Source of the DNA: a phage
Direction: 5' to 3' (one strand)
Length of the DNA stretch: 64,000 nt
Sequence record: OZ346189.1
How positions within the stretch are numbered: the first letter of the stretch is position 1; every line of letters begins with the position of its first letter. Of the stretch, positions 7,742 through 61,555 are shown in pieces. The notes beneath the pieces are model-generated. The model searched no databases. It saw only the letters and a program-made list of their open reading frames with translations, and was not told the DNA's origin. Both the position numbers and the translations under genes were made by a program.

Positions 7742-8067
7742 CAGAGATCATCATTTCAACTGCAGGGTATGTGTTCCTGACAATCATTGCACTGACCATT
7801 TTGGTGGTGGTATATGGAATTGTTATTCTCCCTATTCTTGAGACAATTAGTTTGTGTCGGTGTTGGAGAAAGGCTTACGGTCCACAGCCGTGGAAGGACT
7901 GGCCCCACCTGGTGCACATAGCGTTCTCTTATGCTTATGATCACGCCAGCAGTGCATGCATAACCGGGTATCACGCCCACAACTGGAGCTGGGAAGGGTT
8001 GAGGAAATGGAATGTTACAAAGACCATACCTCTGCGCATGTACAAACCTAAAAACAAAGACAGCTGA
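7738..8067 (+). CDS. hypothetical membrane protein
   Basis: hydrophobic N-terminal segment; start overlaps previous stop. Confidence 0.45.
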   Translation: MTEIIISTAGYVFLTIIALTILVVVYGIVILPILETISLCRCWRKAYGPQPWKDWPHLVHIAFSYAYDHASSACITGYHAHNWSWEGLRKWNVTKTIPLRMYKPKNKDS

Positions 8068-60655: not shown

Positions 60656-60684
60656 TTGACAAACTTTGCTTAACAGTGTAATAT
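60656..60684 (+). promoter_or_regulatory. sigma70-like promoter for the tRNA cluster (TTGACA-17-TAATAT)
   Basis: hexamers about 60 nt upstream of the first tRNA. Confidence 0.5.
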
Positions 60685-60742: not shown

Positions 60743-60817
60743 GCCCTGTTAGCTTAGTGGATAAAGCAGCGGCCTTCTAAGCCGTTGACACTGGTTCGAG
60801 TCCAGTACGGGGTGCCA
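60743..60817 (+). tRNA. tRNA-Arg (anticodon TCT)
   Basis: hand-folded cloverleaf: acceptor GCCCTGT/ACGGGGT, anticodon stem GCGGC/GCCGT with loop CTTCTAA, T-arm ACTGG-TTCGAGT-CCAGT, encoded CCA. Confidence 0.65.
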
Positions 60818-60821
60818 AATT

Positions 60822-60900
60822 GGGGAGTTATCCCGTAGAGGTAGCGGTGTAGACTGTAAATCTATTGTCATTGCGACTCGGGTGGTTCGACTCCACCACT
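60822..60900 (+). tRNA. tRNA-Tyr (anticodon GTA)
   Basis: acceptor GGGGAGT/ACTCCCC, anticodon loop CTGTAAA, long variable arm, T-arm GGTGG-TTCGACT-CCACC, CCA. Confidence 0.65.
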
Positions 60901-61022
60901 CCCCACCAAATTTATATTTTTAGATGCATAAATAATACAGATAATGGCATTGATATTTATCGTCGTTTATACTAGTCACTAACTGCTCGAAAATCAGTGT
61001 CATTATCAGTATAATTTATAAA

Positions 61023-61113
61023 GGAGGGTAGGGAGCAATGGTGCTCAAGCGGTCTTGAAAACCGTCCCGTTGAGGATGACTCGATGATGGTTCGATTCCA
61101 TTACTCTCCGCCA
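61023..61113 (+). tRNA. tRNA-Ser (anticodon TGA)
   Basis: class II fold: 3-bp D stem, anticodon loop CTTGAAA, long variable arm, T-loop TTCGATT, CCA; acceptor has one G-U pair. Confidence 0.55.
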
Positions 61114-61210
61114 CATTGTTGACCTTGTAATTAAGCGAAAGCCGGAAGCAGAACCGGATTATCAAATGTTACAGTCGTCATCGCCGACTAGCAACATGGT
61201 CAACATACTG

Positions 61211-61308
61211 AGCTAGGTAAGCCCTTTGGCAAGGGCGAGGATTTTTAATCCTGAAAATAGACGAGGTAGTCGTTGAATACATAGGTGGTTCGATTCCATC
61301 ACCTAGCA
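61211..61308 (+). tRNA. atypical tRNA-like sequence (anticodon loop reads TTTTTAA, possibly Lys-TTT) with an approximately 30-nt insertion in the variable region
   Basis: acceptor GCTAGGT/ACCTAGC, D-arm GCCC/GGGC and T-arm GGTGG-TTCGATT-CCATC are recognisable; anticodon stem has only 4 bp; no encoded CCA. Confidence 0.3.
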
Positions 61309-61315
61309 CCTTTTT

Positions 61316-61391
61316 GCTGATGTAGCACAATCGGTAGTGCAATTGATTTGTAATCAATAGGTTGTAGGTTCAAGTCCTGCCATCAGCACCA
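61316..61391 (+). tRNA. tRNA-Thr (anticodon TGT)
   Basis: acceptor GCTGATG/CATCAGC, anticodon stem ATTGA/TCAAT with loop TTTGTAA, T-loop TTCAAGT, CCA. Confidence 0.65.
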
Positions 61392-61392
61392 A

Positions 61393-61467
61393 GGCCCTGT
61401 AGCTGGAAGGTTCAAGCAAGCGACTCATAATCGCCAGACGGTGGTTCAATTCCACCCAGGGCCACCA
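61393..61467 (+). tRNA. tRNA-Met or tRNA-Ile2 (anticodon CAT)
   Basis: acceptor GGCCCTG/CAGGGCC, anticodon loop CTCATAA, T-arm GGTGG-TTCAATT-CCACC, CCA. Confidence 0.6.
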
Positions 61468-61478
61468 AATAGTAAATA

Positions 61479-61555
61479 CTCCGCGTAGCTCAGCTTGGTA
61501 GAGCGCCTGATTTGGGATCAGGAGGTCGAGTGTTCGAATCACTCCGTGGAGACCA
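61479..61555 (+). tRNA. tRNA-Pro (anticodon TGG)
   Basis: acceptor CTCCGCG/CGTGGAG, D-arm GCTC-AGCTTGGTA-GAGC, anticodon stem CCTGA/TCAGG with loop TTTGGGA, T-arm GAGTG-TTCGAAT-CACTC, CCA. Confidence 0.7.

Follow-up and report, generated by a model that had tools for sequence, protein, structure and literature searches.

What is encoded between the tRNA-Ser and tRNA-Thr genes of an rV5-type Vequintavirus? The question is raised by a transfer RNA (tRNA)-like element of 97 nucleotides (nt), at positions 61212-61308 (+) of a 64,000-nt stretch of the phage sequence record OZ346189.1 (the window), the segment 60600-61700 of which is 100% identical to Escherichia phages rV5_ev168, JeffSchatz, and others. 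Deposited annotations of this element disagree with each other: it is unannotated in the rV5 GenBank record, and the rV5 genome paper lists six tRNAs and no more (PMC3606486); it is labeled tRNA-Lys(AAA) in the BASEL phages, tRNA-Stop(tta) in JLBYU08, and tRNA-OTHER, with the note Asp|Gly, in Murica; and its homolog in Erwinia phage records is labeled a suppressor tRNA, sup(tca). Our literature searches found no paper describing it. The first-pass annotation of the window recognized an atypical tRNA-like gene with an oversized variable region, which it read as a tRNA-Lys(UUU), a tRNA with an insertion or intron, a pseudogene, or a tRNA-derived regulatory RNA. The comparative analysis presented here indicates that the element is almost certainly a real, conserved tRNA-like RNA gene, and we propose, with moderate confidence, that its product is an approximately 97-nt small RNA, a nondecoding tRNA mimic released by the tRNA-processing enzymes. 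The last of the four earlier options is the nearest to the evidence; the other three fail, for reasons given below.

Homologs were collected by BLAST searches with the element and then with successively diverged homologs, and by pattern scans of IMG/VR, metagenomes, and GTDB genomes followed by scoring with a covariance model (R1) built from 21 sequences. Alignment A2 comprises 21 distinct sequences and the full family set 30. The R1 scores are cleanly bimodal: the members lie at 95-119 bits, and all other hits, for the most part ordinary class II tRNAs, at 40 bits or below. The 30 distinct homologs belong to five Vequintavirinae genera, the phi92-like Justusliebigvirus, and one N4-like phage:

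Vequintavirus: the rV5 type
Avunavirus and relatives: Av-05, TH18
Seunavirus: KE22, SSE121, PVP-SE1, EspYZU15, GAP31, 4MG
Mydovirus: BIS47, VLCpiM5b, NDO71, K54lambda, Ro1, VIK251
Henunavirus: Hena1, pEp_SNUABM_01 (a suppressor tRNA in its annotation)
Justusliebigvirus (Stephanstirmvirinae, phi92-like): VEcB, PaulScherrer, Serratia phage KKP_3264
Schitoviridae (N4-like): UTK0002

The family was found only in phages. The IMG/VR and metagenome scans contributed nine new sequence variants and no new phage groups, and none of the 29 pattern matches in GTDB representative genomes scored as a member, the pattern being a specific one that distant relatives may escape. Certrevirus yielded only partial T-arm matches and possibly lacks the element. 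Every member forms part of a tRNA cluster, in most cases beginning 2-6 nt beyond the CCA of a tRNA-Thr, tRNA-Ile, or tRNA-Leu.

The rV5-type element runs from G1 at 61212 to the discriminator A at 61308; the next bases are CC (61309-61310) and U. The parts of the molecule, all on the plus strand, are as follows:

61212-61218 and 61301-61307 (+): acceptor stem of 7 base pairs (bp), GCUAGGU/ACCUAGC; 7/7 pairs are 100% paired in 21 sequences, with double-sided changes in three
61219-61220 (+): linker A8 A9; across A2, A8 never varies, and position 9 is occupied by A or G
61221-61236 (+): D arm, GCCC-UUUGGCAA-GGGC, or alternatively a 6-bp stem with the tetraloop UGGC; the four stem pairs are 96% paired, three of them with double changes
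61237 (+): G at position 26, between the D arm and the anticodon-like arm; invariant in A2
61238-61252 (+): truncated anticodon-like arm AGGAUUUUUAAUCCU, 15 nt versus the canonical 17; stem 95% paired, three pairs with double changes
61253-61283 (+): variable region of 31 nt, containing a 5-bp hairpin
61253-61259 (+): A-rich 5' linker of the variable region, GAAAAUA; G and AAA are (nearly) invariant in A2
61260-61274 (+): variable-region hairpin GACGA-GGUAG-UCGUU, from the minimum free energy (MFE) fold; 8 nt shorter than that of other genera
61275-61283 (+): 3' linker of the variable region, GAAUACAUA; AAUAC and the last A are invariant in A2
61284-61300 (+): T arm GGUGG-UUCGAUU-CCAUC, 97% paired
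61301-61310 (+): acceptor 3' strand, discriminator A, CC, then U; the CCA is incompletely encoded

The MFE of the element is -34.2 kcal/mol (z = -3.66), and none of 200 shuffled sequences folds as well. Fold and covariation bear out the anatomy that had been described at first pass, namely, the acceptor, D, and T arms, the 4-bp stem around a TTTTTAA loop, and a variable region of about 30 nt with its own hairpin; of the boundaries then given (61211-61308), the end holds and the start moves one base downstream.

The case for a functional RNA rests on the alignment. Across A2, 97.6% of the cells of the cloverleaf plus its tertiary pair are paired, and 11 of the 22 pairs show double-sided changes; the covariation score of 0.505 compares with 0.176 in shuffles, none of 500 of which reaches it, and slid controls are 31-44% paired. 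RNAalifold independently yields the same fold, with the 6-bp D stem and tetraloop, although this D-stem extension is not testable by covariation because U14-A21 and U15-A20 are invariant. The D-loop G (61229) covaries with the T-loop C (61291): the tertiary pair G19:C56 becomes U19:A56 in 7 of the 21 sequences, C56 being A exactly where G19 is U, so that UUUGGCAA/UUCGAUU is replaced by UUUGUCAA/UUAGAUU. The seven phages are related, and the switch may represent one or a few events; nevertheless, that the two positions switch jointly implies that the L-shaped elbow is maintained. In the variable region, the hairpin differs greatly in sequence across subgroups while its pairing is kept by compensatory changes in three of them; the rV5 hairpin itself (61260-61274) shows a compensatory A-U to G-C change relative to Av-05 and TH18. 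The linkers flanking it are conserved and unpaired (5' GAAAA(A)UA; 3' (G/A)AAUACAUA), and the length of the region is nearly constant at 38-40 nt, with the exception of the rV5/Av-05 clade, where a hairpin shorter by 8 nt brings it to 31 nt. Such a conserved module with fixed A-rich linkers, 31-40 nt in length and present in 30/30 members, is in the variable region and not at position 37/38, which disposes of the earlier notion of an intron or insertion.

Variation at close range gives the same picture. Among eight distinct operon sequences of Vequintavirus, 5/97 sites of the element are variable, compared to 1-16% in the canonical tRNAs and 23-55% in the spacers. Two of the five are hairpin-loop bases and one is a linker base; the other two are a G-U to G-C and a U-A to U-G change, and all five are compatible with the structure. 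These comparisons place the element under purifying selection. As a separate observation, the hairpin loop of the Mydovirus, Henunavirus, and N4-like versions (e.g., locus L018, 1268-1289) has an invariant GAAC...AGUAC arrangement that is absent from the rV5, Seunavirus, and phi92-like versions. The GAA opposite AGUA may resemble the bulged-G motif of loop E and the sarcin-ricin loop, and would then form a typical protein-binding platform.

The part of the molecule that would meet the codon is, by contrast with the conserved body, short and inconstant. The anticodon-like arm is 15 nt long in 17 of the 30 members and 16 nt in the other 13, and the canonical 17 nt is seen in none. Three types of loop can be distinguished:

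Type C (rV5/Av-05 clade): AGGA-UUUUUAA-UCCU or AGGA-UUUAUAA-UCCU, which pairs equally as 5 bp with a 5-nt loop
Type A (Seunavirus, Mydovirus): AGGUC-C[ACU]NCCA-GACCU, a 6-nt loop in which CCA is invariant and the two bases before it are free
Type B (Henunavirus, phi92-like, N4-like): RGGC-[CU]AUCAAA-GCCY, with A at position 33

The rV5 arm can pair in two ways, as 4 bp with UUUUUAA or as 5 bp with UUUUA, and accommodates a 7-nt loop only with the 4-bp stem. Even its nearest relative, Av-05, has UUUAUAA in place of UUUUUAA, and this lack of conservation, together with the length of the arm in all 30 members, speaks against the first-pass assignment to tRNA-Lys(UUU). Across the homologs, the triplet at the anticodon position is UUU, UAU, UCC, GCC, ACC, or UCA; the anticodons of the neighboring Thr(UGU), Leu(UAA), Arg(UCU), Cys(GCA), and Tyr(GUA) genes are identical in every locus. 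In the core, A8 and U14 are invariant in all 21 sequences of A2, whereas canonical tRNAs have U8 and A14. Judged on these features, namely, an arm 1-2 nt short, an unconserved loop, and A8 for U8, the decoding geometry is lost.

The 3' end follows another pattern. Of the 30 members, 19 encode U73-CCA, which is the same throughout Seunavirus, Mydovirus, and Henunavirus despite variation in the trailers; in most lineages, therefore, a mature CCA end probably matters. Elsewhere, the corresponding bases are ACCU, ACAU, UACA, or CACA in the rV5/Av-05 clade and UCCC or UUCA in the phi92-like phages. A mature CCA end in the rV5 type would need 3' trimming and the host CCA-adding enzyme.

Two individual members deserve mention here. 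The copy in Salmonella phage UTK0002 (locus L028, 1202-1309), an N4-like podovirus with a large tRNA cluster, is of type B and shares 88.6% identity with the element of Erwinia phage Hena1, which suggests horizontal transfer between phage families. The Seunavirus 4MG (locus L017, 1209-1318) is the only one of its genus with the loop CAGCCA and UGGC in the variable arm, where its relatives have CAUCCA and UGGA; the two differences could have arisen as one compensatory change in a contact between the loops. Kissing between the anticodon-like loop and the variable-arm loop is, however, absent in the Mydovirus, phi92-like, and rV5 types and so is no feature of the family.

The confusion in the databases can be traced to predictions made on single sequences. 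The Rfam tRNA model (RF00005) reports the rV5 element at 35.5 bits (gathering threshold 29; E = 1.6e-5) with an insert of about 26 nt in the variable region, and the homologs in KE22, VEcB, VLCpiM5b, and L131 go unreported at E <= 0.01. ARAGORN returns "tRNA-???" with the four-base anticodon atcc. Taken at face value, this output would make the element a +1 frameshift suppressor (AUCC in an 8-nt loop), and the JLBYU08 label would make it an ochre suppressor (UUA); the GenBank notes tRNA-Stop(tta) and Asp|Gly are of the same kind. However, the ARAGORN register is itself noncanonical: its stem, AUUUU/AAAAU, is 35.2% paired across homologs, against a mean of 34.1% in shuffles and much like the slid controls, and ARAGORN makes no call for the element in 20 other homologous loci. 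The UUA reading requires a stem without any pairing. The first-pass annotation had allowed for a canonical fold in a different register; none emerged. Comparative analysis rules out both kinds of suppressor, to which we attach a negligible probability. Because the ARAGORN stem pairs at the chance level and the element goes uncalled in those 20 loci, the labels atcc, Lys, and Stop(tta), and with them Asp|Gly, are best regarded on comparative grounds as artefacts of single-sequence prediction.

The element lies within the tRNA operon, which has the following layout:

60656-60684 (+): putative sigma-70-type promoter of the tRNA operon, TTGACA-17-TAATAT; 10/12 matches in a consensus scan
60743-60817 (+): tRNA-Arg(TCT) (ARAGORN, Rfam)
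60822-60908 (+): tRNA-Tyr(GTA) (ARAGORN, Rfam)
61023-61113 (+): tRNA-Ser(TGA) (ARAGORN, Rfam)
61212-61308 (+): tRNA-like element, between tRNA-Ser and tRNA-Thr
61316-61391 (+): tRNA-Thr(TGT) (ARAGORN, Rfam)
61393-61467 (+): tRNA-Met/Ile2(CAT) (ARAGORN, Rfam)
61479-61555 (+): tRNA-Pro(TGG) (ARAGORN, Rfam)

The site at 60656-60684 is annotated as P(tRNA) in the rV5 GenBank record and, from its match to the consensus, would drive the operon. All six canonical tRNAs of the window encode CCA.

Comparison with known RNAs helps to narrow the identity of the element. With class II tRNAs (Ser, Leu, Tyr) it shares the 7/5 minihelix, the D arm, G19:C56, the T-loop UUCGAUU, a hairpin between the anticodon and T arms, and a location in tRNA operons. 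It differs from them in its 15-16-nt anticodon arm with an unconserved loop, in A8/U14 for U8/A14, in the absence of a Ser, Leu, or Tyr anticodon, in having 7-10 unpaired conserved nucleotides at the extra arm where class II tRNAs have 0-2, and in a discriminator of U, A, or C in place of G or A. With selenocysteine tRNA (tRNA-Sec; RF01852) and the allo-tRNAs (Mukai et al., PMC5389517) it has in common a long extra arm and, possibly, a 6-bp D stem with a 4-nt loop, and the type B loop CAUCAAA is one base away from the Sec loop CUUCAAA. The branch of the element, however, is 7/5 and backed by covariation, as opposed to 8/5, 8/4, or 9/3 in those RNAs; unlike tRNA-Sec, it lacks G73 and has A33, and the rV5 member lacks UCA. 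The best score on the tRNA-Sec model is 39 bits (type B), below the gathering threshold of 47, and the tRNA-Ser of the window obtains 41.5 bits on the same model. An allo-tRNA with an 8/4 or 9/3 branch is likewise rejected, its 12-bp branch being contradicted by the covarying 7-bp acceptor and 5-bp T stems. Transfer-messenger RNA was also considered and set aside: ARAGORN reports none, and pair 3:70 is U:A, C:G, or A:U, not G3:U70.

Among RNAs outside decoding, species 1 and 2 of phage T4 (rnaC and rnaD) are, like the element, small RNAs of unexplained function in a phage tRNA cluster; those of T4 are stable and located at the end of the cluster, and rnaC ends in a T-arm-like sequence. They differ in length (139 and 119 nt) and fold, and no homology is detectable: rnaC scores 9.8 bits with R1, below the 24.8 bits of T4 tRNA-Thr, and rnaD is not hit at all. 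The closest functional resemblance is to the mascRNA/MEN-beta RNAs and the bacterial YrlA modules, tRNA mimics with intact acceptor, T, and D portions and a defective anticodon region that are processed by tRNA enzymes and do not decode. The element likewise combines a tRNA body with a defective anticodon arm, and would share their processing and nondecoding character. They are nonetheless unrelated to it in sequence, come from other organisms, and lack an expanded variable-region module, and the Rfam YrlA and mascRNA models do not match the element.

We therefore return to the proposal that the element specifies a tRNA mimic. What it has kept are the parts recognized by processing and tRNA-binding proteins: the minihelix of 7-bp acceptor stem and 5-bp T arm, the D arm, and the pair that joins the D and T loops at the elbow. 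Gained in addition is a variable-region module of 31-40 nt, with its conserved A-rich linkers. That it does not decode is probable. The RNA would be cotranscribed with the six phage tRNAs from the operon promoter, cut by RNase P at G1 to form its 5' end, and then trimmed and completed with CCA at the 3' end, as for any acceptor/T minihelix. It might then act by molecular mimicry, occupying a protein that recognizes the shape of tRNA; candidate partners are a host tRNA-targeting defense nuclease or transferase, an aminoacyl-tRNA synthetase, and a modification enzyme. Phage tRNAs are discussed as supplements or decoys (PMC13096335), and several counter tRNA-targeting defenses: T5 tRNA-Tyr acts against retron-Eco7, T6 tRNA-Tyr against Septu, and T5 tRNA-Lys against PARIS. 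Like the element, these are phage encoded, located in tRNA clusters, and changed mainly in the loops recognized by defense nucleases, i.e., the variable and anticodon loops (PMC13096335); they are, however, functional decoders that replace cleaved host tRNAs, whereas the element lacks a canonical anticodon arm. A role as an anti-defense decoy or inhibitor is a possibility that we consider rather doubtful. Its more specific form, which we regard as unlikely, is that of a nontranslatable tRNA chassis whose lineage-specific loop mimics and decoy variable arm trap or inhibit host tRNA-targeting immune effectors. The loops would then be Lys-like in rV5 phages (UUUUUAA), Gly-like in Salmonella, Klebsiella, and Cronobacter phages (CNNCCA), and of the UCA/A36-A38 type in Erwinia and phi92-like phages (YAUCAAA), and the targets might be PrrC-, RloC-, or PARIS-type anticodon nucleases, Septu- or retron-Eco7-type variable-loop nucleases, or toxins that modify tRNA.

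Several observations weigh against the idea of a nondecoding mimic. The rV5 loop UUUUUAA is a textbook Lys-type anticodon loop, with U33, UUU, and A37, and a 4-bp anticodon stem may not by itself preclude decoding. A decoy that acts stoichiometrically would do little against a catalytic nuclease, unless its binding were inhibitory. In Escherichia phage V18 (locus L008, about 1450-1546), a deletion has taken out tRNA-Ser and the 5' half of the element, so that what remains of the element begins at the 3' strand of the variable hairpin and is fused to the 5' portion of tRNA-Tyr; Arg, Thr, and Met are the only tRNAs left. The RNA is therefore nonessential for growth in V18, at least in the laboratory. 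The open reading frames near the locus offer no functional clue, matching just PHROG families of unknown function, one Pfam domain of unknown function, and a spanin, and literature searches returned no expression, end-mapping, or binding data for any family member. As for action by base pairing instead, searching the 64-kb window for antisense matches to either conserved linker (complements CCTATGTATT and CTATTTTCAGG) turned up no more than expected by chance.

The rival that takes the rV5 loop at its word is an unusual functional decoder: the rV5 version would be a tRNA-Lys(UUU) whose anticodon stem has 4 bp and whose extra arm is long, and the versions of other lineages would be tRNAs for Gly or Ile(AUA) or opal suppressors; charging might not depend on the anticodon, in which case the RNA would recode. 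The U33 and A37 of the rV5 loop, the tRNAscan-based Lys label in GenBank, the sup(tca) label of the Erwinia phage records, the U73-CCA encoded and invariant in 19/30 members, and the passage of the Rfam tRNA threshold by the rV5 element all fit this explanation. Yet the anticodon changes among close relatives whose bodies are conserved, and a 17-nt arm is never seen in the 30 members; in the 6-nt loops, position 33 is occupied by A, C, or U and position 34 by A, G, or U, and the type B loops have A33. ACC is not known to serve bacteria as a Gly anticodon. All members in A2 carry A8 for U8, the 7-10-nt unpaired linkers flanking the extra arm are unlike those of any class II tRNA, and the rV5 clade does not encode CCA, although all six neighboring tRNAs do. 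We consider a decoder quite unlikely. Another rival is a molecule that can be aminoacylated but works outside translation, as a carrier or as a sink for a synthetase. ​In Seunavirus and Mydovirus, it could be charged by glycyl-tRNA synthetase (GlyRS), since type A combines G1:C72, C2:G71, U73, an encoded CCA, and an invariant C35-C36-A37; we take this set to resemble the identity set of Escherichia coli GlyRS, which is a lead only and leaves out the rV5 member. The type A loop also resembles the CUUCCAA loop of the tRNA-Gly(UCC) that these phages encode, which likewise has U73. On the other hand, the rV5 clade lacks the NCC motif and its discriminator is A, U, or C, pair 3:70 is not G:C, and the genes near the locus, to which the search was confined, include no identified aminoacyl-tRNA-dependent transferase. 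Such a carrier is improbable.

Two further explanations dispense with any function of the RNA in trans. One is that the fold serves only as a stabilizing or "punctuation" element, recruiting RNase P and the 3' enzymes to mature the polycistronic transcript. The constant position within tRNA operons, a few nucleotides from neighboring tRNAs, would suit such a role, as would the rV5 T-arm/acceptor helix followed by UUUUU, which scores as terminator-like; but the adjacent tRNAs already supply RNase P sites, and punctuation has no need for invariant A-rich linkers, a constant 38-40-nt variable region, elbow covariation, or lineage-invariant loop motifs. This makes it decidedly improbable. The other is a decaying tRNA pseudogene, as considered at first pass. 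Degenerate tRNA-like sequences do occur in these clusters (a Mydovirus tRNA-Ile homolog with a 6-nt loop and the spacer 61114-61211, both described below), the CCA is incomplete in the rV5 clade, and half of the element is deleted in V18. Nevertheless, all helices, and the tertiary pair as well, show compensatory substitutions in a comparison spanning three phage families, and the variability of the element matches that of true tRNAs and is 4-10 times below that of the spacers. Its low variability (5/97) relative to the spacers therefore excludes decay, to within a very small residual probability.

The tRNA clusters harbor other unusual features. In the window, a second promoter-like site, TCGAAA-17-TATAAT, lies at 60987-61015, inside the cluster and just 5' of tRNA-Ser. 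The 98-nt spacer between tRNA-Ser and the element (61114-61211) has an 8-bp closing stem, UGUUGACC/GGUCAACA, and three internal hairpins, giving a cloverleaf-like fold of -25.8 kcal/mol (z = -2.57); 24.5% of its sites are variable, as in other spacers, and it is possibly a degenerate tRNA remnant. The tRNA with the CAT anticodon (61393-61467) is Met according to ARAGORN and the rV5 authors, and tRNA-Ile in the BASEL annotation (reading AUA, implying lysidine modification). In the Klebsiella Mydovirus loci L018 and L019, directly 5' of the element (1141-1215), there is a homolog of tRNA-Ile(GAU) with the 6-nt anticodon loop ACGAUA, reported by ARAGORN as "tRNA-??? anticodon (ga)" and labeled tRNA-Ser in one GenBank record; it is the second tRNA with a short anticodon loop in these clusters. 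On the 3' side of the element, about 190 nt without annotation are conserved among Seunaviruses (L005, 1606-1796, versus L016, 1318-1508), and a different stretch is conserved between Mydovirus and Henunavirus (L018, 1327-1508, versus L023, 1314-1525). Both hold motifs resembling tRNA fragments (GCATTAGCTCAG... and GGTCGTAGAGCGC...) and could be further noncoding RNAs or tRNA relics. Finally, a 152-kb metagenomic phage contig with a type B element (L103) contains what ARAGORN calls a "tRNA-Pyl (cta)" at 7862-7934, which is amber-suppressor-like.

The practical consequence of these findings concerns annotation. A near-identical rV5-type copy is present in at least 114 deposited phage genomes, with homologs in several further genera, and missed or conflicting labels distort tRNA counts, codon-usage arguments, and claims of suppressor tRNAs. 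Noncoding RNAs of the tRNA-like kind are already known; this one comes with a distinctive architecture and clean comparative support. For RNA structure, it offers a natural tRNA core rebuilt around A8/U14, in which the D stem may reach 6 bp and the junction strands are long and A-rich. For the biology of the large lytic phages of Enterobacteria, it would mean that they keep a strongly constrained mimic of tRNA. With tRNA-targeting immunity and the countermeasures mounted by phage tRNAs emerging fast, a conserved, probably nondecoding tRNA look-alike is an obvious candidate player in that conflict.

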